A stretch of 64,000 nucleotides of DNA, taken from assembly GCF_024700885.2 (NCBI RefSeq), contig NZ_CP117016.1; one strand, given 5' to 3'. The notes under the pieces were generated by a model. It was not told the DNA's origin. It worked only from the letters and a program-made list of their open reading frames with translations, and did no database searches. Both the position numbers and the translations under genes were made by a program. This document shows, piece by piece, positions 32,349 to 51,054 of the stretch; the first letter of the stretch is position 1; every line of letters starts with the position of its first letter. This stretch comes from Escherichia coli. GTDB taxonomy: Bacteria > Pseudomonadota > Gammaproteobacteria > Enterobacterales > Enterobacteriaceae.

Positions 32349-32501
32349 CTACTTCTTCGATTCGTAAGCGAGAACTGCCTTAAACTCCATACCACGTTCT
32401 CTGATACTCAACTCACACAACGAGTCGCCTACCATCAGCGTGAATCCCAGTACTGTACAACACAGTACGATGATTGCCACAAGGGCATATTTTGTCAGCA
32501 T
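32349..32501 (-). CDS. Hok/Gef-family type I toxin (small membrane peptide), apparently intact
   Basis: 50 aa [53 protein letters not shown] with the SLCE...AYES signature of Hok/Gef toxins; GGAGG Shine-Dalgarno 6 nt upstream. Not in the ORF track (under 60 aa). Confidence 0.6.
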
Positions 32502-35286: not shown

Positions 35287-37085
35287 TAGTAGACATCTCG
35301 CTGATAACGGCGCTCTACGCGCAGCTCACTTAAAAATTCATCCGCCGCTTCGGTGTCCATGCCACCAAATTCGGCAATCACTTCCAGAAGTGCCTGCTCA
35401 ACGTCTTTCGCCATGCGATTAGCGTCGCCGCAGACATAAATGTGGGCACCGTCATTGATCCAGCGCCACAGCTCCGCGCCCTGTTCGCGCAGTTTGTCTT
35501 GTACATAAACTTTTTCTTTTTGGTCGCGCGACCAGGCAAGATCGATGCGGCTCAATACGCCTTCTTTCACGTAGCGCTGCCACTCCACCTGGTAGAGGAA
35601 ATCTTCCGTAAAGTGCGGGTTGCCAAAGAACAGCCAGTTTTTACCTGGCGCTTCGTCAGCGGCGCGTTGCTGCATAAAGGCGCGGAACGGCGCGATGCCG
35701 GTGCCTGGGCCAATCATAATCACCGGGGTTTCCGGGTTGGCTGGCAGGCGGAAGTTATCGTTATGTTCGATAAAGACGCGGACTTCGCCCTCTTCTTCCA
35801 CGCGATCCGCGAGGAAGCTGGAGGCACCACCGGCACGGGCTCGGCCTTCCACGTCGTAACGCACCACACCAACGGTGACATGTACTTCGTTCTCGACTTC
35901 CGCCTGCGAGGAGGCGATGGAATACAGGCGCGGGGTCAGCGGGCGCAGCAGGTTAATCAGCGCTTCGGCATCCAGTTGCGCCGGAGAGAAACGCACCATG
36001 TCAACAATCGGCGTGGTCGCGGCGTAATGCTGTAACTTCGCTTTATCGCCCACCAGCGGCAGCAGCGTTTCGCTGCGGGTAAGCGTGGCGTAGTTCTCAA
36101 CAATATTCGCGGTGTTGACGGTGAGTTCAAAGTGCCACTGGAGCGCTTCGCTCAGGGTCAGCGTTTTGCCCTCAACGGTGACAGGTTCATCGCCTTTCAG
36201 CCACAGCAGTTCGACAAGTTCTTTCACCAGTGCCGGATCGTTCTGATACCAGATGCCCAGCGCGTCACCCGGCTGATAACGCAGGCCAGAGTCACCTAAG
36301 TCAATTTCGATATGGCGAACGTCTTTTTCAGAGTTACGCCCGGTAATTTTCTGGTTAACCGAAAGGCTCGCCACCAGCGGCGCGTCTTTGCTGTACGGGC
36401 TGGTGTGGATTTCATTTACCGCGCCAGTAGCGACGGATTGCGAAGGTGCCGCGACAGGCGCACGGGACTTCAGAACATCAACCACGCGGGCGCGCCACTC
36501 GCTGGCAGCAGCCTGGTATTCAACGTCGGCATCGACACGGTCGAGCAGGCGTTCACCGCCCAGTTCCGCCAGCTTGCTGTCAAAATCTTTCCCGGACTGG
36601 CAGAAAAATTCATAAGAGCTATCGCCGAGGCTAAACACGGCAAATGCAGTGTTTTCCAGCTTTGGCGCTTTTTTGGAGAACAGGAACTTATGCAGCGCGA
36701 CGGCTTCTTCCGGCGGTTCCCCTTCCCCTTGCGTTGACGTCACCACGATGAGCAGTTTTTCGCTGGCGATTTGTTTGAATTTATAGTCGCCCGCGTTCAC
36801 CAGCTTAACGTTCAGTTTTGCCGCTAATAAATCATCGCGTAATGCTTCAGCAACCCGGCGCGCATTGCCGGTTTGCGAAGCGGAGATAATAGTTATACCC
36901 GGCATTTCTGCGGCGGGCGCAGGCGTCGCTGCAAGCGCTGCAGGCTGCTGGTTGAGTACGCCCCAGAAATAGCCAGAAACCCAGGCAAGCTGGGTGGGAG
37001 TTAAATCGGTCGTGGCCGCCTGAAGGCGTGCCAGTTGCTCCGGGTTCAACGGAAGCAACGCGGAAGGTGGGACCTGTGTCGTCAT
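35286..37085 (-). CDS. cysJ: Sulfite reductase flavoprotein alpha subunit
   Basis: 599 aa, flavodoxin plus FAD/NADPH domains. Confidence 0.9.
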
Positions 37086-37400
37086 GCGTCGTTATGTTCC
37101 AGTAAGCAAAGCTGTTTCTGCGCCCTGTCAGCGCCCATAAAACAGAAGAGAAGGTAAGGTTAACGGGGTGAACGGTGTGGATTAAAGACGGGATAGCGAT
37201 AACTAATAACCAAATCGACTAACCTGTTTTAGCAATAGTCTTTAACAACAAAACAGATTAACCAACCCAATGAAAAACAAATGAAATTAGCCAATCATTA
37301 AGATAAATTAGCGATTTTGCGCAACAAAGTCGTTTTAGATAATGCGAAAAAACAGCCTTTCCGGTACTCTACGGCGGTTTTATCGTCCTGTAGAGAAATT

Positions 37401-37766
37401 ATGATGTCCACCACGTTATTTAAAGATTTCACCTTCGAAGCCGCTCACCGCTTACCACACGTCCCGGAAGGGCATAAATGTGGTCGCCTGCACGGGCATT
37501 CCTTTATGGTGCGACTGGAAATTACCGGGGAAGTCGATCCGCATACGGGCTGGATTATCGATTTCGCTGAACTGAAAGCGGCGTTTAAGCCAACTTATGA
37601 GCGCCTCGATCACCATTATCTCAATGATATTCCAGGTCTGGAAAACCCAACCAGCGAAGTTTTAGCAAAATGGATTTGGGATCAGGTTAAACCGGTTGTT
37701 CCGCTGTTAAGTGCGGTTATGGTGAAAGAAACCTGCACCGCAGGTTGCATCTATCGCGGCGAATGA
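37401..37766 (+). CDS. queD: 6-carboxy-5,6,7,8-tetrahydropterin synthase
   Basis: ORF trimmed to [10 protein letters not shown]... (121 aa). Confidence 0.85.
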
Positions 37767-37843
37767 TAAGAGTGTGTCGGCGGTCAATTTCCCTTAAGTA
37801 ACGCTATGTTAGGGTGTTGCGCTCTGGATATATGGGGCACGAC

Positions 37844-39115
37844 ATGGAAGACGACTGCGACATTATTATTATCGGTGCCGGCATTGCGGGCACCGCTTGT
37901 GCGTTACGCTGCGCGCGGGCAGGTTTATCCGTTCTGTTACTGGAACGTGCTGAAACCCCTGGCAGCAAAAATCTTTCTGGCGGGCGTTTATACACCCATG
38001 CGCTCGCGGAACTCCTCCCGCAATTTCATCTGACCGCGCCTCTTGAACGACGCATCACTCACGAAAGCCTTTCCCTGTTAACGCCGGATGGCGCAACGAC
38101 GTTTTCCAGCTTACAGCCCGGCGGAGAATCCTGGAGCGTATTACGTGCACGGTTCGATCCGTGGCTGGTTGCCGAAGCCGAAAAAGAAGGTGTCGAATGC
38201 ATCCCTGGTGCGACGGTGGATGCGCTGTATGAAGAAAACGGCAGGGTGTGTGGTGTCATTTGTGGTGACGATATTCTCCGCGCCCGTTATGTGGTGCTGG
38301 CAGAAGGTGCCAACAGCGTCCTGGCTGAGCGTCACGGGTTAGTGACTCGTCCTGCTGGCGAAGCGATGGCGTTGGGGATCAAAGAAGTGCTGGCGCTGGA
38401 AACATCCGCTATTGAAGAACGTTTTCATCTGGAGAATAACGAAGGCGCAGCGTTGCTGTTCAGCGGCGGAATCTGTGATGACTTACCCGGCGGCGCATTT
38501 CTTTATACTAATCAACAAACGCTCTCGTTAGGGATTGTTTGCCCGCTCTCTTCACTTACGCAAAGTCGTGTTCCAGCAAGCGAGCTGCTGGCTCGCTTTA
38601 AAACGCATCCGGCAGTGCACCCGCTTATCAAAAACACGGAATCACTGGAGTATGGTGCGCATCTGGTGCCAGAAGGTGGCTTGCACAGTATGCCAGTGCA
38701 ATACGCCGGTAACGGCTGGCTGCTGGTGGGCGATGCGTTGCGCAGTTGCGTCAATACCGGAATTTCCGTGCGCGGTATGGATATGGCGCTGGCTGGCGCA
38801 CAGGCGGCGGCACAAACGCTGATAAGCGCCTGCCTGCACCGCGAGCCGCAAAATCTGTTTCCGCTTTATCATCACAACGTCGAGCGCAGCCTGCTATGGG
38901 ATGTTCTACAACGTTATCAGCATGTTCCGGCGCTTTTGCAACGACCTGGCTGGTATCGGGCGTGGCCTGCGTTAATGCAGGATATTTCCCGTGATTTATG
39001 GGATCAGGGTGATAAACCTGTTCCGCCGCTGCGCCAGTTATTCTGGCGTCATTTACGTCGTCACGGCCTGTGGCATCTGGCGGGCGATGTTATCAGGAGT
39101 CTGCGATGTCTGTAG
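37844..39115 (+). CDS. ygcN: FAD-dependent oxidoreductase (ETF-QO/FixC-like)
   Basis: Trimmed to MEDDCDIIIIGAGIAG... (423 aa), Rossmann FAD motif. Confidence 0.8.
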   Translation: MEDDCDIIIIGAGIAGTACALRCARAGLSVLLLERAETPGSKNLSGGRLYTHALAELLPQFHLTAPLERRITHESLSLLTPDGATTFSSLQPGGESWSVLRARFDPWLVAEAEKEGVECIPGATVDALYEENGRVCGVICGDDILRARYVVLAEGANSVLAERHGLVTRPAGEAMALGIKEVLALETSAIEERFHLENNEGAALLFSGGICDDLPGGAFLYTNQQTLSLGIVCPLSSLTQSRVPASELLARFKTHPAVHPLIKNTESLEYGAHLVPEGGLHSMPVQYAGNGWLLVGDALRSCVNTGISVRGMDMALAGAQAAAQTLISACLHREPQNLFPLYHHNVERSLLWDVLQRYQHVPALLQRPGWYRAWPALMQDISRDLWDQGDKPVPPLRQLFWRHLRRHGLWHLAGDVIRSLRCL

Positions 39116-39366
39116 CCCGTAATCTCTGGCGCGTTGCCGATGCGCCGCACATTGTTCCGGCTGACTCCGTTGAGCGCCAGACGGTACAACGGTTGATTAA
39201 CGCTTGTCCGGCTGGTCTTTTTTCGCTCACACCGGAAGGTGATTTACGCGTTGATTATCGCGGCTGCCTGGAGTGTGGCACCTGCCGTTTGCTGTGCGAC
39301 GAATCAACACTACAACAGTGGCGCTATCCGCCTTCCGGATTCGGCATCACCTACCGTTTTGGATAA
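39106..39366 (+). CDS. ygcO: Ferredoxin-like protein (FixX-like)
   Basis: Trimmed to MSVARNLW... (86 aa); cysteine motif CLECGTCRLLC. Confidence 0.75.
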   Translation: MSVARNLWRVADAPHIVPADSVERQTVQRLINACPAGLFSLTPEGDLRVDYRGCLECGTCRLLCDESTLQQWRYPPSGFGITYRFG

Positions 39367-39382
39367 ATAATAAGGATAATTT

Positions 39383-39958
39383 ATGCCCCTCTTACACCTG
39401 CTCCGCCAGAATCCGGTGATTGCTGCCGTTAAAGATAATGCCAGCCTGCAACTGGCAATCGACTCTGAATGCCAGTTTATTTCCGTGTTGTACGGCAATA
39501 TCTGCACCATTAGTCAAATCGTTAAAAAGATTAAAAATGCCGGAAAATATGCTTTTATTCATGTTGATTTGCTGGAAGGCGCGTCAAATAAAGAAGTGGT
39601 GATTCAGTTTTTGAAACTGGTGACAGAGGCGGACGGAATTATCAGTACCAAAGCCTCAATGCTGAAAGCAGCAAGAGCGGAAGGTTTTTTCTGTATTCAT
39701 CGCCTGTTTATTGTTGATTCAATTTCGTTTCACAACATTGATAAGCAAGTTGCGCAATCGAATCCGGATTGTATTGAGATCCTGCCAGGCTGTATGCCCA
39801 AAGTGCTGGGCTGGGTGACGGAGAAAATCCGCCAACCGCTGATTGCTGGCGGGCTGGTGTGCGATGAAGAAGATGCGCGTAATGCGATTAACGCAGGTGT
39901 CGTGGCGCTTTCCACCACGAATACCGGGGTCTGGACGCTAGCGAAAAAATTGCTTTGA
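39383..39958 (+). CDS. ygcP: GlpP-family glycerol-3-phosphate-responsive antiterminator-like protein
   Basis: 191 aa; K-12 synteny. Confidence 0.8.
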   Translation: MPLLHLLRQNPVIAAVKDNASLQLAIDSECQFISVLYGNICTISQIVKKIKNAGKYAFIHVDLLEGASNKEVVIQFLKLVTEADGIISTKASMLKAARAEGFFCIHRLFIVDSISFHNIDKQVAQSNPDCIEILPGCMPKVLGWVTEKIRQPLIAGGLVCDEEDARNAINAGVVALSTTNTGVWTLAKKLL

Positions 39959-39989
39959 CGGGATAATCGTAACGAATTGAATTTGTGTG

Positions 39990-40062
39990 ATTTGTAGGCT
40001 GCACGCCACATCCGACATTCAGCGCCTGATGCGACGCTTGACGCGTCTTATCAGGCCTACAA
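39990..40062. repeat. REP/BIME palindromic element between ygcP and ygcQ
   Basis: GCCTGATGCGACGCTTGACGCGTCTTATCAGGCCTAC preceded by a second REP-like arm. Confidence 0.45.
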
Positions 40063-40104
40063 GTCCCCAGCCCAGAACCGTAGGCAGGATCATCCGGCAA
40101 CACG

Positions 40105-40965
40105 TTATTGGCAATCTGCGTGAATGTTTGTCACCAGTGCCTCCAGCACCACTTTCCAGTCATCAACCACGCCAACATCTGCCTGTGAAAATACCGCTGC
40201 GCTGGCGTCATGATTAATCGCCACCACAAACTTGCTATTGCGTACGCCCGCCATTAACGCTGCTGCGCCGGAAGCGCCAACAACAATACACACCTCAGGT
40301 GCCAGCAGATGTCCGGAAATACCAATCACTTTTTCAGCATCAACGCCACCGTTCATCACTCGCGCCCGACTGTAGCCCACTTCGGCTCCCAGCTTTTCTG
40401 CCAGCATAGCGATTTCCTGGTTATCTGCCTCTCCGCCCTGCCCCACCACCAGCACCCGTCTGGCTTCAGCTAATGGGTCGCGGGTAACATTTTTCAGGTT
40501 TTCTATGCTAACCAGCCAGTCGGGAAGCGCACCTGGGACAATGTTCAGTTGCTGCATACCAGAGGGCAACGTGGCGTTTTTATCTGCTCCCGCCTGACGT
40601 GCCAGCGAAAGGCATAGCGGGCGTTTTTCTGTTTGCAGCGTCGCCGTTAGCGCATTTCCCCAGTGGGATTTGCGCACGCTTACGGTTGGAATATCTAACG
40701 AAGTCACCTGGCAGATGCTTGCACCATGTAAACGCCAGGCCAGCCGGGTCGACAGTTCATCGCCAAACGTTCCCGGCGGAAAGAGAACAACGTCCGCTGG
40801 CGTTCGCTGCCACTGTTCCACCAGCGCATCCAGCACCTGTTCCGCCACTACGGGCTGAGGTTCAATATGCCAGTGTGCCAGGGTACAACCGCTGAAATCC
40901 TGTTCTGCCAGCCAGCTCGCTATTGCGGCATTCTCCTGATTTATTGTCACAATTGCGATATTCAT
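40105..40965 (-). CDS. ygcQ: Electron transfer flavoprotein alpha-subunit-like protein
   Basis: Trimmed to MNIAIVTINQ... (286 aa); ATGA overlap with ygcR. Confidence 0.8.
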   Translation of the reverse strand: MNIAIVTINQENAAIASWLAEQDFSGCTLAHWHIEPQPVVAEQVLDALVEQWQRTPADVVLFPPGTFGDELSTRLAWRLHGASICQVTSLDIPTVSVRKSHWGNALTATLQTEKRPLCLSLARQAGADKNATLPSGMQQLNIVPGALPDWLVSIENLKNVTRDPLAEARRVLVVGQGGEADNQEIAMLAEKLGAEVGYSRARVMNGGVDAEKVIGISGHLLAPEVCIVVGASGAAALMAGVRNSKFVVAINHDASAAVFSQADVGVVDDWKVVLEALVTNIHADCQ

Positions 40966-41741
40966 GGCTGCATCCTTTGGCGTAAATAGTCCTGCCATAG
41001 CTTTTGCGCTTTTTCTGCTACCGTTTGCCCATCAATCAGCGTCGCTCCGCGTTGTTGCTCTGCTCTTGCCAGTTGCAGACACTGCATCGCTGGCGATTCG
41101 GCAGCAACAGTTTTACGGATAATTTCTGCTTTCCCCGCCGCCATACGCTGGCGCATTCCCGGTACTGGCAAGGCCACTTCACCGCACTGACGCACGGCAA
41201 TCACCGCAGGCAAGCGAACCCGGCAACAGCGCAGCCCGTTTTCAGTACGCTGTTCGAGGGTGATAAACGGCGCGTCGAGAGTAAAACGCTCCACCTGGGT
41301 GAAGCAGGGCCAGCCCAGCATTTCCGCCAGCAAAAATGGCGTTTGCCCATTCTGCCCTTCGCTGCTTTGGCAGCCGGTAATTATCAGATCCAGCGGATTC
41401 TGACGCTGCCATTCGGCAATATGGCGAGCGACAAATTCCGGCGCAAAGCGCAGATCTGCCGCCGTCTCCAGCAATACAGCTTCCTCAAACCCAAGCGCCA
41501 TGAGATAGCGCAGCCAGTGCAACGCCCGTTCATCCCCCATGCTCAACGCGGTTAAGGACATCGACGTACCGTTTTTTCTCTGCGCCAACAGCAGCGCGGC
41601 GGCAGCCTGTTCATCAGCACCGAGTAAACTTCGCAGAAGCGAAACATCCGGTCCGCTATTACCCTGAGCCGCCGCCTGCCACTCTTTTTCCGCCAGCATT
41701 CCGGCATCCGGTTCGGCTTTAAACGCTAACAGAATGTTCAT
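40962..41741 (-). CDS. ygcR: Electron transfer flavoprotein beta-subunit-like protein
   Basis: 259 aa from MNILLAFKAEPD. Confidence 0.8.
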   Translation of the reverse strand: MNILLAFKAEPDAGMLAEKEWQAAAQGNSGPDVSLLRSLLGADEQAAAALLLAQRKNGTSMSLTALSMGDERALHWLRYLMALGFEEAVLLETAADLRFAPEFVARHIAEWQRQNPLDLIITGCQSSEGQNGQTPFLLAEMLGWPCFTQVERFTLDAPFITLEQRTENGLRCCRVRLPAVIAVRQCGEVALPVPGMRQRMAAGKAEIIRKTVAAESPAMQCLQLARAEQQRGATLIDGQTVAEKAQKLWQDYLRQRMQP

Positions 41742-43056
41742 TCGCACCTCCTACATTTCCCGCCGCCACCAGCGGGAGTGCTTTGGTTTCTGGTGCCCAT
41801 AGCCAGGTCACAACAAAACCAACCAACAACACTGCCGCCAGGAGCATTAAGGTGACTTGCATTCCCCACTGCGCCAGCACCCACGGCAGCAGGCCAGTAC
41901 TTACCGCCGCCCCCAACCGACTCATGGCGGTGGCAAAACCGACGCCCAGCGAGCGAATGTCAGTAGGAAAACTTTCCGCAGGCAAAATGCCCACCAGATT
42001 ACTGACTGCCGAAATGGTGGTGCTGAAGAGAACAAAAAGCAGCAGCGTTAATGAACTGCCGGAAGGCAAACAAGCCATCACTACCAGCGTTGCCGCCAGC
42101 AGCAAAAAACTTCCCAGCAAAAATTTGCGATGTGCCAGCAGGTGCGTCAGAACTAATCCCAGCAGCGCACCCACAATTAACAACGCATTAAGCATCAGGC
42201 TAGCGGTCAACGCATCTTCCAGACCAATAGTCTGGGCGATAGTTGGCAGCCAGGTATAAATCACAAACCATGGGATTACGAGGCAGACAAAGAAGACGCT
42301 GTTAAACGCCGTGCGCCGCCAGTAGCGCGAAGAGAACAAGGTTTTGATGTGTTTATGGGTCGCCGTTGCCACTTCATCGCCCAGTAAAACATGGGGACCA
42401 AAATAGCGATGCACGATAGCGTGAGCTTCTGCAAAACGCCCCTGCCGCAGTAGCCAGCGTGGCGATTCTGGCGTTCCCCAGCGTAATAACGTAATCAACA
42501 ATGCGGGCAGAGCTGCCGATGCCAGCAGCCAGCGCCAGGCCTCCGGGCTTTCGCTAATAAAGTGATGTCCGGCAATACTTGCCAGCACATAGCCTACGGT
42601 CCACACCACGCTGAATGCGCCCAGCAAAATACCGCGATGGCGGCGCGGAGAAAATTCAGCCAGCAAGGTGTGGCCTACTGAGTAATCGCCTCCCAGACCA
42701 ATGCCGATCAAAATGCGCAGTCCAATAAGATGCTCTGGCGTGGTGGCAAAAAATTGTAAGAACGAAGCGAGCGTAATCAGCAAAAAGCTGAAGGTGAAGA
42801 TTTTTTGCCGACCAATATGGTCGGAGATCCACCCCAAAACCAGGCTACCGATAAACAGGCCAAGTAGCGCCGAGCCGCCAATCATTCCCGCCATAAACGG
42901 CGTCAGTTGCATGGCGGGTGTAAGCTGAATAATGGCGTAACCAATGACGCCGAGAACATAACCGTCGGTCAGGTGCGCGCCGAAAGTGAGCGCAGCAATT
43001 CGACAGTGAAAACGGTTAAGCGGTAAATCATCCATTCGCACCGGTGAAGTGTTCAT
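41719..43056 (-). CDS. ygcS: MFS transporter
   Basis: Trimmed to MNTSPVRMDD... (445 aa). Confidence 0.8.
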   Translation of the reverse strand: MNTSPVRMDDLPLNRFHCRIAALTFGAHLTDGYVLGVIGYAIIQLTPAMQLTPFMAGMIGGSALLGLFIGSLVLGWISDHIGRQKIFTFSFLLITLASFLQFFATTPEHLIGLRILIGIGLGGDYSVGHTLLAEFSPRRHRGILLGAFSVVWTVGYVLASIAGHHFISESPEAWRWLLASAALPALLITLLRWGTPESPRWLLRQGRFAEAHAIVHRYFGPHVLLGDEVATATHKHIKTLFSSRYWRRTAFNSVFFVCLVIPWFVIYTWLPTIAQTIGLEDALTASLMLNALLIVGALLGLVLTHLLAHRKFLLGSFLLLAATLVVMACLPSGSSLTLLLFVLFSTTISAVSNLVGILPAESFPTDIRSLGVGFATAMSRLGAAVSTGLLPWVLAQWGMQVTLMLLAAVLLVGFVVTWLWAPETKALPLVAAGNVGGANEHSVSV

Positions 43057-43148
43057 CTTTACCCCTTCATTGTCCGGTAATAAGAACGGCTTCTCGCCTG
43101 AGAAGCCGAAAAGGCAACGCCCCTCATAGCGGAACGCTGCCTCACACA

Positions 43149-44603
43149 TTATTTTTCAATCGGATAGATAGTACCCGTATTCATAATGCCGTTAGGATCG
43201 AACTGTTTTTTCAGACCTTCCAGCAACGTCCACGCGCTGCCGTGTTCCAGTTTGCTCCAGTGAACGCGATGTTTACCAATACCGTGGTGGTGCACCATCG
43301 AACCGCCGAGGCGAATGGTTTCTTCGCAGATGATTTTGTTGAGCGGATTGTGGTACTTGTCGATTTCCTCTTCCGGCTTACAGTCGACAACGTTGTAGTC
43401 GTAAACGAAGTACATGTTGGTGCCGTTCTGGTAGCTGTGAGAGGAGTGACCGCCCAGCATGGTGATGTCGTCGGCGTGCGGGAACTCGGTACGAATACGG
43501 TTAATAACGCTTTCGTAGATTTCGTGGATGCAGCTCCAGCAGCCGGACACTTCGGTGGTAAAGCCCATGTTGCCGGTTTTGAGGATCTGCACACGTTCAG
43601 CGGCCACTTTATCCGGCCCCCAGTTCAGGTGATTAAACCAGGTTTCGATCAGCTTGCTGTCCACTCGCTGGCATTGCGGGTAACGTGCCACGATTTCCGC
43701 AATCCCTTCGCCTGTCGCCTTCGCAATGCGAGGGTTACCTTCAGCCATAAAGATCAGCACACATTTACCATCGGCAAAATGGGTGAAGTGTTGGGTGCCA
43801 TCTTCAGCGTCATACAAACGAGCGATCGACGGACGATACCCTTCCACCATGATTTCACGCAGGATGTTGAAGCCGGTTTTCATGTCTTCCAGGATATAGC
43901 CGTAGAAGAGGTTGTTTTCCGGGGTGAACTTAAAGATTTTCACAGTTACTTCAGTGATATAGCACAATGCACCTTCGTTGCCGATGATGATGTGACGAAT
44001 GTCCGGGCCTGCCGCGCGGCGTGGTACGTTTTTAATGCGTGTTACGGTGCCATCAGCCAATACTGCTTCCAGACCAACGACCATATCTTCGATTGCGCCG
44101 TAGAGTGTGGAGAACTGCCCGATACTGCGGGTTGCTACCAGGCCGCCCATCTGCGCCAGCGGCTTTGACTGCGGAGAATGCCCCGTGGTGTAACCTTTTT
44201 CACGCAACGCGTTTTCCAGCACCTCCAGCGGAACGCCACATTGCGCCGTCGCCTGCATATTCTCAATATCAATATTAATGATTTGATTCATGGCGGAGCC
44301 GTCGAGCACCACCGAGTTTTCCACAACGGTTTCCAGCCCACCTTCAGTGGCGGAAGCGCCGGTACGCGGCACACCGTTAATTTTGTGCGCATTCATAAAA
44401 TTCAGCACACGGGAGACTTGTTCTGTGGAACCGAGTTTTACGACCGCTGCCGGAATCGGCAAAGTATAAATACCATGAATATCCGGAAATTTACGAAAAC
44501 GGTCAATACTGTTTTTCTTTAATACTGTTTCATCGGTAATTACGCGATCTGCACCAACAATTTCCTTTAGCTGGTCGACAATCGCTGCGCGAGATAAAGA
44601 CAT
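43149..44603 (-). CDS. ygcU: FAD-linked oxidase (alkyl-DHAP synthase-like)
   Basis: 484 aa; K-12 synteny. Confidence 0.8.
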   Translation of the reverse strand: MSLSRAAIVDQLKEIVGADRVITDETVLKKNSIDRFRKFPDIHGIYTLPIPAAVVKLGSTEQVSRVLNFMNAHKINGVPRTGASATEGGLETVVENSVVLDGSAMNQIINIDIENMQATAQCGVPLEVLENALREKGYTTGHSPQSKPLAQMGGLVATRSIGQFSTLYGAIEDMVVGLEAVLADGTVTRIKNVPRRAAGPDIRHIIIGNEGALCYITEVTVKIFKFTPENNLFYGYILEDMKTGFNILREIMVEGYRPSIARLYDAEDGTQHFTHFADGKCVLIFMAEGNPRIAKATGEGIAEIVARYPQCQRVDSKLIETWFNHLNWGPDKVAAERVQILKTGNMGFTTEVSGCWSCIHEIYESVINRIRTEFPHADDITMLGGHSSHSYQNGTNMYFVYDYNVVDCKPEEEIDKYHNPLNKIICEETIRLGGSMVHHHGIGKHRVHWSKLEHGSAWTLLEGLKKQFDPNGIMNTGTIYPIEK

Positions 44604-44672
44604 AGTAATTCCTTCCTGATAATAAAAATGGAATAATCATTAATAAGAGAAAACAGAAACCACCGTTATGGA

Positions 44673-45458
44673 TTAGCGCACTAAATAACCGCCATCGACC
44701 ACTAATAAATGCCCGTTAACATAATTTGAAGCCGGACTTGCGAGGAATACGGCTGCGCCCATTAAATCCTGAGTATCGCCCCAACGGTTTGCCGGAATAT
44801 GATCAAGAACGCGCTGGTTAGTTTCTGGATTACTACGGGTCGCCAGAGTGATATCGGTAGCGTAATATCCCGGGGCAATACCATTCACCTGAATATTATA
44901 TTGACCTAATTCATCGCAATAGGCTTTGGTGAATCCGGCAAGAGCATGTTTAGTGGCAGAATAAGCAGGTGACCATTGTCCACCTAAGTAAGAGAACAAT
45001 GAACAGATATTAATGATTTTACCGCTTTTCTGCGGGATCATAATTTTTGCAGCTTCATAGCTTAACTCGAATGCGGCGGTCAGGTTCACATCAATCATTG
45101 GATCCCAGTCGGCACGACCGAAGTCCAGCACCTTATTCAGCTTACAAATACCGGCATTGTTAACCAGAATATCGACGGTACCGAAACGTTCGCAACAGGC
45201 GGCGATTATCTTCTGCGGCGCGCCTTTTGCGGTGATATCCACCTGCATGAAGTCTACTTCAACACCCTGTTTTTCAATCATTTCCTTTGTTTCGCCGTTA
45301 TCTTTGACGAAGCTTGGAATAAAGATATTTGCGCCTGCTTTGGCCAGCGCCATGGCAAATGCCTGGCCTAAACCGCTATTCCCGCCGGTAACAATTGCGG
45401 TTTTACCTTTCAGGGAGAAAAAATCCATTGAGAACGCATTGAGAGATTCGATTGACAT
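44673..45458 (-). CDS. ygcW: Short-chain dehydrogenase/reductase
   Basis: Trimmed to MSIESLNAF... (261 aa), GGNSGLG Rossmann motif. Confidence 0.8.
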   Translation of the reverse strand: MSIESLNAFSMDFFSLKGKTAIVTGGNSGLGQAFAMALAKAGANIFIPSFVKDNGETKEMIEKQGVEVDFMQVDITAKGAPQKIIAACCERFGTVDILVNNAGICKLNKVLDFGRADWDPMIDVNLTAAFELSYEAAKIMIPQKSGKIINICSLFSYLGGQWSPAYSATKHALAGFTKAYCDELGQYNIQVNGIAPGYYATDITLATRSNPETNQRVLDHIPANRWGDTQDLMGAAVFLASPASNYVNGHLLVVDGGYLVR

Positions 45459-45776
45459 AGTTAGCTCCAATTTCCGTAAGGCAAAAAAAAAGAAAGGTAA
45501 CTTCCCCCGCGAGAGGGAAGTTACCTTTCTCATTATCTCTGGTAACTGGAGATAATTTTTATCATAAGGGCATAATCGCTAATGTGATCGTAATCACAGT
45601 GTGATATTCGAATTGTCAAATAATTTTAAAAAGCAGAAGCGTGATTACTCTCACACAACACCACTGCTTTCCATGTTATTTCTTATTGCAATTACTAGAG
45701 ACCTGAGAAAAGTAATCCACCTGAAAGGGCGGCTTACTTTTCTCTTTTTTTTGTCTATTACAAATGGGAATACGAT

Positions 45777-47054
45777 ATGCAACACAACTCATGTCGCCGT
45801 TGGATAACCCTCGCGATAATTAGTTTTAGCGGCGGCGTTAGTTTCGACCTGGCTTATTTACGTTATATTTATCAAATTCCCATGGCGAAATTTATGGGAT
45901 TCAGCAATACCGAGATAGGTTTAATAATGAGTACCTTTGGTATTGCGGCTATTATTCTTTATGCCCCCAGCGGCGTTATTGCCGATAAATTTTCACACCG
46001 CAAAATGATTACTTCCGCGATGATCATTACCGGATTACTGGGTCTGTTAATGGCAACATATCCACCGCTGTGGGTAATGCTCTGTATTCAGGTCGCCTTT
46101 GCGATAACGACGATTTTAATGCTGTGGTCGGTGTCGATTAAAGCCGCCTCGTTGCTGGGCGATCATAGCGAGCAAGGGAAAATTATGGGCTGGATGGAAG
46201 GGCTGCGCGGCGTCGGTGTAATGTCGCTGGCGGTGTTTACCATGTGGGTCTTTTCTCGCTTTGCACCGGATGACAGCGCCAGCCTGAAAACGGTCATTAT
46301 TATCTATAGTGTGGTTTACATTCTGCTGGGCATTTTGTGTTGGTTTTTTGTTAGCGATAACAACAACCTGCGCAATACCAATAACGAAGAAAAACATTCA
46401 TTCCAGCTTAGCGACATCCTGGCCGTTTTGCGCATCAGAACCACCTGGTATTGCAGCATGGTGATTTTTGGTGTCTTCACCATCTACGCCATTCTGAGTT
46501 ACTCCACCAACTATCTGACCGAAATGTACGGCATGTCGCTGGTGGCGGCGAGCTACATGGGGATTGTGATCAACAAAATCTTCCGCGCGCTGTGCGGCCC
46601 ACTTGGTGGCATTATCACCACCTACAGCAAAGTGAAATCCCCTACCCGCGTGATCCAAATCCTTTCCGTACTCGGCTTGCTGGCGTTAACTGCCCTGCTC
46701 GTCACGAACTCTAACCCGCAATCGGTCGCGATGGGGATTGGCCTGATTTTACTGCTGGGATTCACCTGTTACGCCTCACGCGGGCTGTACTGGGCCTGCC
46801 CTGGCGAAGCGAGAACACCGTCTTACATTATGGGCACCACGGTAGGTATTTGTTCGGTGATTGGATTCCTGCCGGATGTCTTCGTTTACCCGATTATCGG
46901 CTACTGGCAAGACACCCTGCCCGCTGCAGAAGCCTACCGCAATATGTGGCTGATGGGCATGGCGGCGCTTGCCATGGTGATCGTCTTTACCTTTTTGCTG
47001 TTCCAAAAAATTCGTACTGCTGATAGCGCCCCTGCTATGGCTAGCAGCAAGTAA
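45777..47054 (+). CDS. yqcE: MFS transporter
   Basis: 425 aa; K-12 synteny. Confidence 0.8.
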   Translation: MQHNSCRRWITLAIISFSGGVSFDLAYLRYIYQIPMAKFMGFSNTEIGLIMSTFGIAAIILYAPSGVIADKFSHRKMITSAMIITGLLGLLMATYPPLWVMLCIQVAFAITTILMLWSVSIKAASLLGDHSEQGKIMGWMEGLRGVGVMSLAVFTMWVFSRFAPDDSASLKTVIIIYSVVYILLGILCWFFVSDNNNLRNTNNEEKHSFQLSDILAVLRIRTTWYCSMVIFGVFTIYAILSYSTNYLTEMYGMSLVAASYMGIVINKIFRALCGPLGGIITTYSKVKSPTRVIQILSVLGLLALTALLVTNSNPQSVAMGIGLILLLGFTCYASRGLYWACPGEARTPSYIMGTTVGICSVIGFLPDVFVYPIIGYWQDTLPAAEAYRNMWLMGMAALAMVIVFTFLLFQKIRTADSAPAMASSK

Positions 47055-47080
47055 GTCCAGAAAATTACAGGAGAAAAATC

Positions 47081-48559
47081 ATGTCGAAAAAATACATCAT
47101 AGGGATTGATGGCGGAAGTCAGAGCACAAAAGTGGTGATGTACGATCTGGAAGGTAACGTGGTTTGCGAAGGCAAAGGCTTATTACAGCCGATGCACACG
47201 CCAGATGCCGATACTGCAGAACATCCTGACGACGATTTATGGGCATCATTATGTTTTGCCGGTCACGATTTGATGAGTCAGTTTGCCGGAAATAAAGAAG
47301 ATATTGTCGGTATTGGTCTGGGATCCATCCGTTGCTGCCGTGCGTTATTGAAAGCCGATGGCACGCCAGCTGCGCCGTTGATTAGCTGGCAGGATGCTCG
47401 CGTTACACGCCCTTACGAACATACGAATCCTGACGTGGCATATGTCACCTCTTTTTCGGGTTATCTGACGCATCGCTTAACCGGCGAGTTTAAAGATAAT
47501 ATCGCCAACTATTTTGGTCAGTGGCCGGTGGATTATAAGAGCTGGGCATGGAGCGAAGAGGCTGCGGTAATGGATAAGTTTAATATCCCCCGTCATATGC
47601 TGTTTGATGTGCAAATGCCTGGCACCGTCCTCGGACATATCACACCACAAGCCGCGCTGGCGACACATTTCCCGGCTGGGCTGCCGGTTGTTTGTACCAC
47701 CAGTGATAAACCGGTAGAAGCACTGGGAGCCGGGTTACTGGATGATGAAACTACGGTAATTTCTCTTGGCACTTACATCGCGTTGATGATGAACGGCAAA
47801 GCACTGCCGAAAGATCCGGTAGCGTACTGGCCGATTATGTCTTCTATTCCGCAAACATTGCTGTATGAAGGTTACGGTATCCGCAAAGGCATGTGGACAG
47901 TGAGCTGGCTGCGCGACATGTTAGGCGAGTCGTTAATTCAGGATGCCAAAGCACAGGATCTTTCACCGGAAGATTTGCTCAACAAAAAAGCGTCTTGTGT
48001 GCCGCCTGGCTGTAATGGTCTGATGACGGTGCTGGACTGGCTGACCAATCCGTGGGAACCGTACAAACGCGGGATTATGATCGGCTTTGATTCCAGCATG
48101 GATTACGCATGGATATATCGTTCGATACTGGAAAGCGTGGCGCTGACGCTGAAGAACAATTACGACAATATGTGTAATGAAATGAATCACTTTGCAAAGC
48201 ATGTGATCATTACTGGCGGCGGTTCGAACAGCGATCTGTTTATGCAGATTTTTGCCGACGTGTTCAACCTTCCGGCACGCCGTAACGCCATTAATGGTTG
48301 TGCAAGTCTGGGGGCAGCGATTAATACGGCGGTAGGTCTGGGGCTATACCCGGATTACGCAACGGCTGTCGACAAAATGGTTCGCGTGAAAGATATCTTT
48401 ATGCCTGTTGAGAGCAACGCCAAACGCTACGACGCGATGAATAAAGGCATTTTCAAAGACCTAACCAAGCACACTGATGTGATCCTGAAAAAATCGTATG
48501 AAGTGATGCATGGTGAGCTGGGGAATGAAGATTCGATCCAGAGCTGGTCGAATGCGTAA
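47081..48559 (+). CDS. ygcE: FGGY-family carbohydrate kinase
   Basis: 492 aa; K-12 synteny. Confidence 0.8.
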   Translation: MSKKYIIGIDGGSQSTKVVMYDLEGNVVCEGKGLLQPMHTPDADTAEHPDDDLWASLCFAGHDLMSQFAGNKEDIVGIGLGSIRCCRALLKADGTPAAPLISWQDARVTRPYEHTNPDVAYVTSFSGYLTHRLTGEFKDNIANYFGQWPVDYKSWAWSEEAAVMDKFNIPRHMLFDVQMPGTVLGHITPQAALATHFPAGLPVVCTTSDKPVEALGAGLLDDETTVISLGTYIALMMNGKALPKDPVAYWPIMSSIPQTLLYEGYGIRKGMWTVSWLRDMLGESLIQDAKAQDLSPEDLLNKKASCVPPGCNGLMTVLDWLTNPWEPYKRGIMIGFDSSMDYAWIYRSILESVALTLKNNYDNMCNEMNHFAKHVIITGGGSNSDLFMQIFADVFNLPARRNAINGCASLGAAINTAVGLGLYPDYATAVDKMVRVKDIFMPVESNAKRYDAMNKGIFKDLTKHTDVILKKSYEVMHGELGNEDSIQSWSNA

Positions 48560-48605
48560 GTGAGGAAGGCCGGGCGGGAAACTGCCCGGCCTGAACATAC
48601 CTGAA

Positions 48606-48877
48606 TGGTTATCCCCGCTGACGCGGGGAACTCGCCAGTGCCTGGTCATATGTGTAACACCTATCCGGTTTATCCCCGCTCGCGCGGGGAACTCTTGCTG
48701 TATAGAGATTATCGGCGTGGGATTGTCGGTTTATCCCCGCTCGCGCGGGGAACTCGTTTGCGGCTTGCAAACATTTTAATGCGTATTCGGTTTATCCCCG
48801 CTCGCGCGGGGAACTCCCAGCCCGACACAAATAATGCAGCATTGCGCGCGGTTTATCCCCGCTCGCGCGGGGAACTC
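48606..48877 (-). CRISPR. Orphan type I-E-like CRISPR array: 4 intact 29-bp repeats plus 1 degenerate terminal repeat, four 32-bp spacers; AT-rich leader on the right (transcribed on minus strand)
   Basis: Repeats CGGTTTATCCCCGCTCGCGCGGGGAACTC at 48666-48694, 48727-48755, 48788-48816, 48849-48877; degenerate copy at 48606-48633. Spacers at 48634-48665, 48695-48726, 48756-48787, 48817-48848. Reverse complement matches the E. coli I-E repeat except one loop base. No cas genes in the window. Confidence 0.9.
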
Positions 48878-49216
48878 TCTAAACATAACCTATTATTAAT
48901 TAATGATTTTTTAAGCCAGTCACAATCTACCAACTTTACAGTATCACACAAACAACACATCTATTATGTTAAAGAGCACTTAATCCATTGATTGAAAAGG
49001 TAAATATTTAAAATAACTCTATACAAACTAAAATCTACCAAACTCCGACGTAATAATTTTCACCTCAGAGAAAAATTAACGCCACAGAATTTGTAGAGAA
49101 TGACAATGATTAGTCCGGAATGGGCAAAATGGATGAGTTTTCAGAGGCGACAAAAAATATAAATGAGTGGAAGTCTTTACAGGTTCCACCCATTTATAAC
49201 GCATATAAATGTGTAA

Positions 49217-49888
49217 TCAGGCAATATTTAAATATTTATGTGTTTGCATCGACAAACGCCAGTTACGCGCAATGCAAGTTTCAATGCACAAACGTGTGGC
49301 ATCATCCTTTTGGCTAATCGGCTGCAGTGCAATGACTCGCGGTTTATCATCGGTCAGCGTCGCAAGCAATTCATCCAGTGCTTCGATATCACGTACGCGT
49401 CCAACTGGGTGTTTGATTTCGTTAGCTCGCTCCAGGGCTTGCGACAATACTTCATAACCACCACGCATATTTAGCTTTGGCGACACGGTGACCCAGGTAT
49501 TCGACGTACAACGCACTTCATGAGTACCGCTGGTTTCTATCTGGCAACTGAAACCGTTCTTTTCGAGCAGATCAGTTAGTGGCATCAAGTCATGAATACA
49601 AGGTTCACCACCCGTAATCACCACGTGACGCGCGGTGTATCCCTGACGACCGATGACTGCGAGTAAGTCTTCACTGCTTGCTGCTCCCCACTTATCACTC
49701 TCTTTCGTTTTACCCAGAATGCTGAAAAGGGAAACTTCCCGATCCTCAAGCTTTTCCCATGTGTGTTTGGTGTCGCACCAGGCACAGCCGACCGGGCATC
49801 CCTGTAAACGAATAAAAATGGCGGGAACGCCGGTAAAGTAACCCTCACCTTGCAGGGTCTGGAACATCTCGTTAATCGGGTACTGCAT
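49217..49888 (-). CDS. queE: 7-carboxy-7-deazaguanine synthase (radical SAM)
   Basis: 223 aa, radical-SAM cysteine motif CPVGCAWCD. Confidence 0.9.
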   Translation of the reverse strand: MQYPINEMFQTLQGEGYFTGVPAIFIRLQGCPVGCAWCDTKHTWEKLEDREVSLFSILGKTKESDKWGAASSEDLLAVIGRQGYTARHVVITGGEPCIHDLMPLTDLLEKNGFSCQIETSGTHEVRCTSNTWVTVSPKLNMRGGYEVLSQALERANEIKHPVGRVRDIEALDELLATLTDDKPRVIALQPISQKDDATRLCIETCIARNWRLSMQTHKYLNIA

Positions 49889-50181
49889 AGCATTCTCTGT
49901 GAAGTGGATAATTGTTAATTATTGCAGATCCTGCCACAACAATCATGTCTTATTAACATTCTGTTACAGGCAGGTTTAAAGAAAAATGAGAAACAGATCG
50001 TTAATAATAAAAGGGAGTAACGTATTATGTCAGAAATAAATAAAGTAAAGGGATTTAATCATGTCAAAAACATTCACCAAAATTATACTTATTTTTTCTG
50101 TGTTCGTTTTTAATTATAACGAATCTCAAATTACCGATGCCGCCGTCAATTTATTTATCCAGCTTTAATGGGACATTTATA

Positions 50182-51054
50182 ATGCGCTATTTCATACCAA
50201 TATTCACATTCGTGTGTTCCTTTGTTGCAGCCCAACCAACTATTGTCCCATCATTACAGCAACAAGTTACGGATCTTACGAGTAGCTTAAACTCACAAGA
50301 AAAGAAAGAACTGACGTACAAGTTAGAATCTATTTTCAATAATACCCAAGTGCAAATTGCTGTATTAATTGTTCCCACAACCAAAGACGAGACAATTGAA
50401 AAATATGCTACACGGGTTTTTGACAATTGGCGTTTAGGAGATGCCAAACGTAATGATGGGATACTGATCATTGTTGCCTGGTCGGATCGTACTGTCCGCA
50501 TCCAGGTAGGTTATGGGCTGGAAGAAAAGGTAACCGATGCTCTGGCTGGAGATATCATCCGTAGCAACATGATACCCGCATTTAAACAACAAAAATTAGC
50601 TCAGGGATTAGAGCTAGCTATAAACGCTTTGAATAACCAACTCACTTCACAACACCAATATCCGGCTAATCCTTCAGAAATTGAATCAGCGTCTTCCAGT
50701 GATCATTATTACTTTGCTATTTTTTGGGTATTTGCAGTGATGTTCTTCCCTTTCTGGTTTTTTCATCAAGGCAGTAATTTTTGTCGCGCATGTAAAAGCA
50801 GTGTCTGTATTTCAGCAATCTATCTTTTAGATTTATTCCTGTTCTCCGATAAAACTTTTTCCATTGCTGTATTTTTCTTCTTTTTTACTTTCACCACCAT
50901 TATGGTCTTTACCTGTTTATGTGTACTTCAGAAAAAAGCATCTGGTAGAAGTTATCATTCAGACAACAGCGGTTCCGGTGGCGGCTCAAGTGGCGGCGGA
51001 TTTAGCGGCGGGGGCGGTTCTTCTGGCGGTGGCGGCGCGTCCGGTCGCTGGTAA
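50182..51054 (+). CDS. ygcG: TPM-domain membrane protein with Gly/Ser-rich C-terminal tail
   Basis: Trimmed to MRYFIPIF... (290 aa). Confidence 0.8.

Follow-up and report, generated by a model that had tools for sequence, protein, structure and literature searches.

Introduction

Several described systems resemble parts of the ygcNOP/ygcQRSUW/yqcE-ygcE block of Escherichia coli, which we analysed in a stretch of 64,000 nucleotides from contig NZ_CP117016.1 (RefSeq assembly GCF_024700885.2; hereafter, the window). In Bacillus subtilis, the antiterminator GlpP acts on the leaders of glpD, glpFK and glpTQ in a glycerol-3-phosphate-dependent manner. Glycerol utilization by GlpK and GlpD and, in Brucella, erythritol utilization by EryA and EryB start with an FGGY kinase, after which the phospho-polyol is oxidised, and both routes can hand electrons on to the respiratory chain. 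In FixABCX, YdiQRST and LctBCD (Ldh-EtfAB), an electron-transfer flavoprotein (ETF) alpha/beta pair stands beside a flavin dehydrogenase. AGPS (EC 2.5.1.26; PDB 4bby, 2uuu), the alkyl-dihydroxyacetone phosphate (alkyl-DHAP) synthase, combines FAD_binding_4 and FAD-oxidase_C domains in a two-domain fold. In eukaryotic ether-lipid synthesis, the alkyl-DHAP reductase is a short-chain dehydrogenase/reductase (SDR).

The ten genes of the ygc block are intact and span exactly positions 37844–48559, from the ygcN start to the ygcE stop (open reading frame (ORF) calling), and the same ten are annotated in a 100%-identical RefSeq region. They form three transcription units: ygcN-O-P (plus strand), ygcW-U-S-R-Q (minus strand) and yqcE-ygcE (plus strand). 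This is one of the larger conserved blocks of E. coli without an assigned function. Of 5426 complete E. coli genomes, 5060 cover at least 80% of it, most of them with 95–99% identity, and about 7% fall below that coverage, and no pathway assignment was found in the full-text literature; the initial annotation was right on both counts. Pfam and NCBIfam also bear out every gene family that it named. None of the ten proteins reaches an NCBIfam equivalog cut-off, and current curated resources therefore give them generic names alone.

Here we describe a predicted GlpP-type switch that is not in Rfam, an AGPS-like enzymatic core and a cross-phylum link to quaternary amines; the gene set itself was already annotated. 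Our best reading, which we hold tentatively, is that the block serves the CRP-activated catabolism of a C1-substituted glycerol-like compound to triose phosphate. The regulatory part of this model is a prediction well supported by comparative evidence. The gene content, the CRP site, the leader structures with their covariation and their joint occurrence with YgcP, and the AGPS-type residues of YgcU were observed. The chemistry we infer, including the order of the enzymes and the identity of the C1 substituent (X), as well as the ligand of YgcP and whether, and in which direction, electrons must pass through the ETF.

Two leader RNAs predicted to act as GlpP-type switches

The ygcW and yqcE units diverge from an AT-rich region of 318 bp (45459–45776), and both begin with a conserved 76-nt leader RNA. 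The regulatory features are:

45584–45599, unstranded: CRP site TGTGATCGTAATCACA, a near-perfect palindrome common to both divergent promoters
45478–45553, minus strand: predicted ygcW leader RNA switch, with box AGUUACC (45547–45541), GGUAACU (45525–45519) and a terminator stem (45531–45490) followed by U9
45684–45756, plus strand: predicted yqcE leader RNA switch, with box AAUUACU and a terminator stem (about 45705–45744) followed by U8
39383–39958, plus strand: ygcP, putative RNA-binding antiterminator of the GlpP family (Pfam G3P_antiterm, PF04309)

The intergenic site is occupied by CRP in vivo, as seen by chromatin immunoprecipitation in enterotoxigenic E. coli (PMC4287617), and is bound in vitro with a Kd of 1.7 nM (PMC12871828); for yqcE-ygcE, a classification as activated by CRP has been published (PMC8085971). 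On this evidence the cluster is catabolic, as the initial annotation had it.

In the ygcW leader, the box AGUUACC can pair with GGUAACU to form an antiterminator that is mutually exclusive with the terminator stem. A terminator scan placed the end of this terminator 20–25 nt before the ygcW start codon, and the U-run of the yqcE terminator ends 25 nt before that of yqcE. Fold z-scores were -5.6 for the ygcW leader and -3.4 for the yqcE leader. The antiterminator and terminator hairpins have energies of -6.7 vs -29.3 kcal/mol in the former and -1.4 vs -20.5 kcal/mol in the latter. Because the antiterminators are weak and the terminators strong, termination would be the default, and a protein would be needed to tip the balance.

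The leaders share the consensus cA[G/A]UUAC[U/C]-AGAG-N3-6-GAGAAA[A/G]GUAA[C/U]UUCC...loop...GGAAGnU[A/G]CUUUUCUC-U8. When this pattern was scanned over 63 species-level loci fetched with YgcU, together with earlier loci, it gave 94 matches, nearly all immediately 5' of ygcW and yqcE orthologues. We aligned 53 leader sequences (alignment A1), all of the ygc type, and built from them the covariance model R1, with which the ygcW and yqcE leaders score 83.7 and 75.3 bits. The terminator helix is paired in 91% of the cells of A1, with 8 pairs changed on both sides, against at most 65% in a slid control. The antiterminator helix, 7 bp formed by the upstream box and the start of the terminator 5' arm, is paired in 96% (slid control at most 53%) and covaries (GC<->AU, 36/16; UA<->CG, 37/13). 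In column 36 of A1, covariation is seen with each of the two alternative partners, as would be expected of a switch. About 18 bare metagenome matches to the pattern, without known neighbours, failed the covariance model and were set aside as chance.

A search of the window with R1 found only the ygcW and yqcE copies, with no leader motif 5' of ygcN or ygcS. Scanning positions 37000–49600 against Rfam 15 (E ≤ 1) gave no credible family, the only hits being a sub-threshold rliE match over the ygcW leader (26 bits, E 0.93) and a weak one to naRNA4 in the ygcP/ygcQ intergenic region. The yqcE leader occurs once in each of 5063 of the 5426 E. coli genomes and is covered by no annotated feature. An sRNA described as "upstream of yqcE on the same strand" was detected by RNA-seq in uninduced cells of strain MG1655 and is listed in the legend of a northern-blot figure (PMC4681348); a prematurely terminated leader would look like this. 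The initial annotation had overlooked both leader terminators, which are likely antiterminator targets.

The ygcW leader also carries an extra 11-bp inverted repeat (AUUAUCUCCAGUUACCAGAGAUAAU; 45532–45556, minus strand) with the antiterminator box in its loop, which it might sequester. The upstream arm of this repeat is present in E. coli and is not conserved in Citrobacter and Klebsiella leaders.

YgcP as the predicted antiterminator

Like GlpP, YgcP matches PF04309 over its full length (residues 12–184 against positions 1–173 of the 173 in the profile, E 1.4e-62). Outside Enterobacterales, the R1 motif was found in 9 of 9 loci that encode a YgcP homologue (L003, L004, L009, L062, L066, L070, L071, L073 and L074) and in none of 8 loci that have the enzymes with another or no visible regulator (L002, L005, L006, L007, L059, L061, L069 and L072; Fisher p ~4e-5). 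Within Enterobacterales, it lies 5' of the ygcW and yqcE orthologues. The arrangement is that of the glpD 5' untranslated region, which consists of a short box, a GAGA-rich linker, a terminator 5' arm holding the complement of the box, and a U-run; in this known GlpP target, the box is GGUC, the linker is GAGAUGAGGAGA and the terminator arm starts with GAGAGACC (PMC9604022, Table S4). Sequence comparison thus leads us to predict, fairly confidently, that both leaders are targets of YgcP as an antiterminator of the GlpP type.

In the ygc and the GlpP systems alike, the phosphorylated inducer would come from a kinase that belongs to the regulon, and there is a further layer of catabolite control, exerted by CRP on ygc and by CcpA on B. 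subtilis glp. The ygc leaders differ from that of glpD in sequence, the regulated genes are not glpFK, glpD or glpTQ, and the host is Gram-negative. E. coli runs a separate glycerol 3-phosphate regulon, controlled by GlpR, and the YgcP ligand is therefore probably not glycerol 3-phosphate itself; we infer that it is the product of the kinase YgcE. That a phosphorylated intermediate is central, as the initial annotation proposed, agrees with the joint presence of an FGGY kinase and a glycerol-3-phosphate-type antiterminator. In E. coli, the ygc motif would be the first target described for antitermination of the GlpP type.

An AGPS-type active site in YgcU

The proposed catabolic enzymes and transporters are encoded by five genes:

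43149–44603, minus strand: ygcU, AGPS-like flavoenzyme, the core's key enzyme (Pfam FAD_binding_4 and FAD-oxidase_C)
44673–45458, minus strand: ygcW, SDR resembling KduD and gluconate 5-dehydrogenase (Pfam adh_short)
47081–48559, plus strand: ygcE, FGGY kinase (Pfam FGGY_N and FGGY_C)
41719–43056, minus strand: ygcS, major facilitator superfamily (MFS) porter (Pfam Sugar_tr)
45777–47054, plus strand: yqcE, MFS transporter (Pfam MFS_1)

Among sequence relatives of YgcU, AGPS is the best (phmmer E 5e-40, 4bby), followed by glycolate oxidase, D-lactate dehydrogenase and LctD. Residues R262, Y398 and H438–H440 of YgcU align with R419, Y578 and H615–H617 of AGPS, positions that we fixed from the mutant PDB entries R419H (4bc7) and Y578F (4bca). 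YgcU has the motifs PSIARLYD and VHHHGIG, and Glu is absent where the GlcD/LDHD family has it. At the VHHHGIG site, glycolate oxidase (9qgz) aligns GEHGVG, and a second FAD (flavin adenine dinucleotide) oxidase, encoded behind the ETF genes of anaerobe loci, carries AIEYID and SEHGVG, the latter of the GlcD type, (S/G/N/T)EHG(V/L/I)G. The AGPS-type residues are kept in 71–73 of 73 orthologues and are invariant in a 43-sequence alignment (A3). YgcU has the two-domain fold of AGPS: with its AlphaFold model (pLDDT 84.7), the top 29 PDB matches in Foldseek are all AGPS (TM 0.80–0.83, E ~5e-29), and D-lactate dehydrogenases and LctD come next (E ~7e-26, TM 0.76–0.78). LctD is a GlcD-family partner of an ETF and a structural relative of YgcU, whose active site is of the AGPS and not of the LctD type. 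A plain D-lactate or glycolate dehydrogenase was ranked lower, as the active-site motifs are AGPS-type rather than Glu-His.

Identity to AGPS is only about 25%, the context of YgcU is catabolic with a soluble substrate, and no genes of long-chain acyl or alkyl metabolism lie nearby. YgcU is also shorter (484 residues vs 584–658), its alignment starting at AGPS residue 215 (138 in the Dictyostelium enzyme), and the missing AGPS N-terminal domain is why it has not been filed as AGPS. In the AGPS pathway, an SDR performs the neighbouring alkyl-DHAP reductase step, and YgcU likewise adjoins an SDR. AGPS needs no external electron acceptor, whereas YgcU is paired with an ETF in many genomes. From its active site, we would expect YgcU to act on a DHAP-like substrate whose C1 bears a leaving group. 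The initial annotation had suggested a phosphorylated sugar alcohol or sugar acid; the AGPS catalytic residues point away from a hexonate or pentitol and towards a C1-substituted, DHAP-like three-carbon phosphate.

The other proteins have looser relatives. YgcW scores 351 bits with the NCBIfam KduD model, below the cut-off of 369, and is proposed to oxidise the C2 hydroxyl. YgcE, whose best solved relative is LsrK, is proposed to supply the phosphorylated inducer and intermediate. It keeps 3 of the 7 glycerol-binding residues of GlpK (R83, W103 and D245, but not E84, Y135, Q246 and F270) and has a deletion of about 40 residues. GlpD and EryB are dehydrogenases of the GlpD type (DAO family), in place of which ygc has an SDR together with the AGPS-like enzyme; isomerases like EryC, EryH and EryI are not conserved in ygc. 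YgcS, a candidate importer of the substrate, has sub-threshold NCBIfam matches to TIGR00895, TIGR00879, the cation-transport model TIGR00898 and SV2, and thus some likeness to porter subfamilies for sugars, for aromatic acids and for organic cations (SLC22-like). With the niacin transporter NiaP it shares 26.5% identity, and overexpressing YgcS increased the output of nicotinamide mononucleotide (PMC8601175). YqcE matches the D-galactonate-transporter subfamily TIGR00893 weakly (E 1e-19, far under the cut-off).

A cross-phylum core and a lineage-specific electron-transfer branch

The remaining four genes encode the electron-transfer proteins:

37844–39115, plus strand: ygcN, FixC/ETF-QO-like flavoprotein (Pfam DAO and the ETF-QO ubiquinone-binding domain ETFQO_UQ-bd)
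39106–39366, plus strand: ygcO, FixX-like ferredoxin and partner of YgcN (weak Pfam Fer4_9)
40105–40965, minus strand: ygcQ, divergent ETF alpha with a shortened N-terminal domain (Pfam ETF_alpha and partial ETF)
40962–41741, minus strand: ygcR, ETF beta subunit (Pfam ETF)

As in FixABCX, YdiQRST and LctBCD, the ETF pair stands beside a flavin dehydrogenase, and all four FixABCX domain types are present in the window, with every NCBIfam score under its family cut-off. YgcN and YgcO are FixC- and FixX-like (YgcN, 381 bits with PRK10015 and 365 bits with FixC; YgcO, E 5e-24 with FixX), and YgcQ and YgcR resemble FixB and FixA only remotely (60–70 bits). Unlike the FixABCX-like systems, ygc can lose its ETF and FixCX parts while keeping its core.

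When neighbourhood ORFs were classified by BLASTP against a reference set, a core recurred that consists of the SDR (YgcW, usually 70–80% identical), YgcU, the FGGY kinase (45–57%) and YgcP (47–60%). YgcU is 65–73% identical in Sporomusa, Alkalihalobacillus, Photobacterium, Desulfobacula and others, with Firmicutes, Vibrionaceae and Desulfobacterota represented. The SDR and YgcU are always adjacent and are 65–80% identical across most phyla sampled, with an iron-type alcohol dehydrogenase in place of the SDR in Enterococcus canis. A minimal module in Thalassobacillus holds YgcP with SDR-FGGY-YgcU-BCCT and no other enzyme. The yqcE-kinase pairing is kept as far as Photobacterium (L004), where the YqcE homologue is 58% identical, adjoins the FGGY kinase gene and has the leader motif 5' of it. 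In enterics, the position beside queD is kept from Escherichia to Cedecea and Buttiauxella, and a species-level scan found the cluster missing from Salmonella and most Klebsiella. All ten genes that the initial annotation treated as a single block are thus present in E. coli, but the unit conserved across phyla is only YgcP-YgcW-YgcU-YgcE.

ETF pairs are frequent in these loci, those outside enterics being only about 30% identical to YgcRQ, and are missing from about a dozen loci with complete clusters: in Enterobacterales, loci of Erwinia, Pantoea, Izhakiella, Ewingella and the Serratia proteamaculans type, and elsewhere those of Alkalihalobacillus, SAR324, Bacillus sp. SJS, Enterococcus canis and Thalassobacillus. 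Among the loci surveyed, only those from Enterobacterales had YgcN and YgcO. Since the ETF is dispensable and YgcN/YgcO have this narrow distribution, the quinone link put forward in the initial annotation appears as a lineage-specific addition, and ygcN is proposed to be a lineage-specific accessory that connects the ETF to quinone.

Three observations from the neighbourhood survey stand apart. YgcE of Yersiniaceae, Budviciaceae and Erwiniaceae (L040–L063) is 43–50% identical to that of E. coli, while the adjoining YqcE is 69–80% identical; Firmicute kinases are nearer to E. coli YgcE (54–57%, and 72% in L069). These two lineages of kinases suggest gene replacement or horizontal exchange. Two loci labelled "Planctomycetota MAG" (L011) and "Chryseobacterium sp." (L033) have YgcU 99% and 89% identical to that of E. 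coli in enterobacterial synteny, and are most likely contaminating Enterobacteriaceae contigs. Beside the ygc-like core of an anaerobe (L007, 349–5317), a divergent unit encodes a GlpD-like dehydrogenase (DAO and DAO_C), a second FGGY kinase and a third FAD oxidase of 561 residues that is 29% identical to YgcU; this unit fits glycerol-related metabolism.

Association with quaternary-amine genes outside enterics

Within 10 kb of the core, 14 of 17 non-enteric loci encode at least one of the following: a carrier of the BCCT type, an ABC system of the OpuA type or a methyltransferase of the MttB family; in L005, the methyltransferase comes with corrinoid and pterin-binding partners. The BCCT, OpuAC and MttB neighbours do not reach the NCBIfam equivalog level. 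The leader motif also precedes such genes: it lies 5' of a BCCT gene in Sporomusa (L003, 16411–16481) and in L070, 5' of an OpuA operon in L009, L124, L136 and L157, and 5' of MttB genes in L080/L126, L159 and L176, with OpuA-type transporter genes next in L126 and L176. The association is therefore regulatory as well as positional. Outside enterics, the substrate is probably an onium-bearing compound that is hydroxylated or glycerol-linked. This co-regulation with quaternary-amine transporters and methyltransferases is not what the plain polyol or sugar-acid route of the initial annotation would predict.

Proposed mechanism and candidate substrates

We propose that cAMP-CRP at 45584–45599 would activate the two divergent promoters and that each leader would fold by default into its strong terminator, leaving the operon off and yielding only a short leader RNA. 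The imported substrate, once phosphorylated by YgcE, would be a glycerol 3-phosphate analogue that binds YgcP, in a feed-forward loop as in B. subtilis glp. YgcP would then stabilise the weak hairpin between the box A[G/A]UUAC[U/C] and [A/G]GUAA[C/U]U, closing the purine-rich AGAG...GAGAAA loop. This hairpin would use up the 5' arm of the terminator, so that RNA polymerase could read into ygcWUSRQ and yqcE-ygcE.

In the proposed pathway, YgcS and/or YqcE would import a glycerol-like compound with a substituent X on C1, and YgcE would phosphorylate its free primary hydroxyl. YgcW would oxidise C2 to a ketone, giving a C1-substituted DHAP by the reverse of the alkyl-DHAP reductase step. YgcU would attack C1 through its flavin and expel X, leaving DHAP or a closely related triose phosphate. 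A DHAP-type product would need no aldolase or isomerase, so three enzymes would be enough, as in Thalassobacillus. In E. coli, the flavin of YgcU would be re-oxidised through the ETF YgcRQ and the FixCX-like YgcN/YgcO to quinone. YgcU may carry out a net two-electron oxidation, with O2 as acceptor in aerobes and ETF in anaerobes; our impression is that ETF-bearing clusters occur more often in presumed anaerobes and ETF-less ones in presumed aerobes. Alternatively, the ETF may re-oxidise flavin that has become reduced by accident, or work for the second, GlcD-type oxidase in loci that have one.

Several findings weigh against this reading. In alignment, the N-terminal domain of AGPS, about 150 residues, has no equivalent in YgcU. 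AGPS catalysis is redox-neutral, and a dedicated ETF would be unexpected for it; YgcU may perform a net oxidation like D-lactate dehydrogenase and LctD. The kinase is nearest to LsrK and XylB and not to glycerol kinase, and the closest relatives of YgcW act on sugar acids. Covariation events in the leaders are few and inherited within lineages, falling mainly between ygcW-type, yqcE-type and Firmicute-type leaders, so that shuffle statistics overstate their independence. The E. coli cluster holds no BCCT, OpuA or MttB gene, and the onium link may therefore not apply there. The literature reports no growth phenotype or inducer for E. coli.

A bolder form of the proposal, which we consider rather unlikely as it stands, is that the core runs ether-lipid chemistry in reverse, stripping a non-hydrolysable or onium substituent from C1 and freeing DHAP, under a new class of GlpP-type leader switches across Proteobacteria, Firmicutes and others. 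Speculative candidate substrates are the deacylated head groups of betaine lipids, such as glyceryl-trimethylhomoserine from diacylglyceryl-trimethylhomoserine (DGTS), conjugates of the glycerophosphocholine type, trimethylammonio-propanediol and other C1-substituted glycerols. In the head group of DGTS, homoserine betaine is joined to glycerol by a true ether bond. In the Alkalihalobacillus locus (L002), a zinc-type alcohol dehydrogenase, an aldehyde dehydrogenase and an aspartase-like lyase adjoin the core, and these could turn released homoserine betaine, via aspartate betaine, into fumarate and trimethylamine. In anaerobes, speculatively, MttB-family enzymes would demethylate homoserine betaine instead. 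A literature search for the catabolism of betaine-lipid-type head groups found none.

If C1-substituted DHAP is indeed cleaved, this would be the first catabolic use of the AGPS flavin mechanism. It could explain how bacteria recycle glycerol from betaine-lipid or choline-linked head groups, and would bear on carbon and nitrogen cycling in the sea and in sediments and on the metabolism of quaternary amines and trimethylamine in the gut. The leader RNAs could be used as biosensors for the inducer; YgcP and the 76-nt motif form a defined regulator-RNA pair, and the motif is possibly a portable inducible switch.

Alternative explanations

The strongest alternative, which we judge unlikely though worth serious attention, is that, after import of a sugar alcohol or sugar acid, YgcE phosphorylates it and YgcW oxidises it with NAD+, and that YgcU is an ETF-linked polyol-phosphate or D-2-hydroxyacid dehydrogenase in the manner of GlpD, EryB or LctD, passing electrons through YgcRQ and YgcN/YgcO to quinone. 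ETF genes do adjoin ygcU in most loci, D-lactate dehydrogenases and LctD-EtfAB are strong structural relatives of YgcU (TM 0.76–0.78), YgcW resembles KduD and gluconate 5-dehydrogenase, YqcE is weakly like the D-galactonate-transporter subfamily, and CRP activates the cluster. However, YgcU lacks the Glu-His of GlcD/LDHD and has the Arg, Tyr and HHH of AGPS instead. The ETF and YgcN/YgcO are not encoded in clusters that are otherwise complete, namely those of Pantoea, Erwinia, Serratia proteamaculans, Thalassobacillus, Alkalihalobacillus and SAR324, no aldolase, dehydratase or isomerase that could finish a C4–C6 pathway is conserved, and the regulon in other phyla holds BCCT, OpuA and MttB genes rather than sugar transporters.

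It is improbable that the E. coli block is a cryptic, effectively silent remnant, whose substrate has ceased to be encountered or whose pathway has gaps, kept by drift or by a moonlighting role. Both leaders terminate by default, only the short leader RNA has been seen in laboratory media, no inducer or phenotype is reported in the literature, Salmonella and most Klebsiella lack the cluster, and about 7% of E. coli genomes fall below 80% coverage. Yet all ten reading frames are unbroken, here as in 5060 genomes that are 95–99% identical, the queD-adjoining position is stable from Escherichia to Cedecea and Buttiauxella, and Enterobacterales have retained the leaders, the CRP site and the catalytic residues, with compensatory changes.

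An electron sink resembling caiTABCDE-fixABCX is more doubtful still. Here, the block would serve anaerobic respiration or redox balancing, with electrons from quinol or NADH flowing by way of YgcRQ and YgcN/YgcO to YgcU for the reduction of an imported onium compound. YgcN and YgcO are paralogues of FixC and FixX, the module sits elsewhere with BCCT carriers, the family of the carnitine antiporter CaiT, and our impression is that ETF versions are common in strict and gut facultative anaerobes and that several ETF-less ones occur in presumed aerobes. The kinase, the glycerol-3-phosphate-type inducer sensor and CRP activation are nonetheless hallmarks of carbon catabolism, the core occurs without the ETF in many genomes, and the cluster has no genes for a coenzyme A (CoA) transferase, CoA ligase or acyl-CoA dehydrogenase as in the cai system.

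Finally, the AGPS catalytic residues, the best fold match to AGPS and the fact that the next eukaryotic step is an SDR would suit a true alkyl-DHAP synthase (YgcU) and alkyl-DHAP reductase (YgcW) making ether lipids, which we regard as very improbable given the transporters, kinase, CRP site and catabolic-type antiterminator, the co-regulation with solute importers, the lack of a DHAP acyltransferase and a fatty-acyl reductase in the cluster and of the AGPS N-terminal domain in YgcU, and because E. coli is not known to make ether lipids.

Other features of the locus

Gene order in the window is cysJIH - queD - ygcNOP / ygcQRSUW / yqcE-ygcE - CRISPR array - queE - ygcG - eno - pyrG. Horizontal acquisition of the block was considered and set aside: the genes have a GC content of 48–58% and AT-richness is confined to the regulatory intergenic region, so there is no clear foreign signature. 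Expression of ygcU is induced 1.69-fold by D-serine, and deleting the gene left the trait under test, repression of the type 3 secretion system by D-serine, unchanged. Proteomics papers on quaternary amines in Citrobacter and Eubacterium do not involve the ygc cluster.

Between the convergent ygcP and ygcQ, positions 39985–40057 give a sub-threshold Rfam match to naRNA4 (29.4 bits, E 0.06), probably a REP/BIME-type element that ends both operons. Directly 3' of ygcE lies a short, type I-E-like CRISPR array (48605–48877) with four spacers and five repeats of about 29 nt, CGGTTTATCCCCGCT(G/C)(A/G)CGCGGGGAACTC, spaced at 61 nt; the first repeat is unlike the others at two positions. RefSeq annotates the CRISPR in an identical strain. 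In that annotated strain, iap, a Hok/Gef toxin gene and cysH follow one another about 5.5 kb 5' of ygcN (L001, 2506–2658; window positions ~32350–32500). In K-12, the type I-E cas operon sits between iap and cysH; it is absent from that place here, which makes the array beside ygcE an orphan. Downstream of queE, positions 50000–51000 form a stretch of 37% GC around a frameshifted hypothetical ORF and ygcG.

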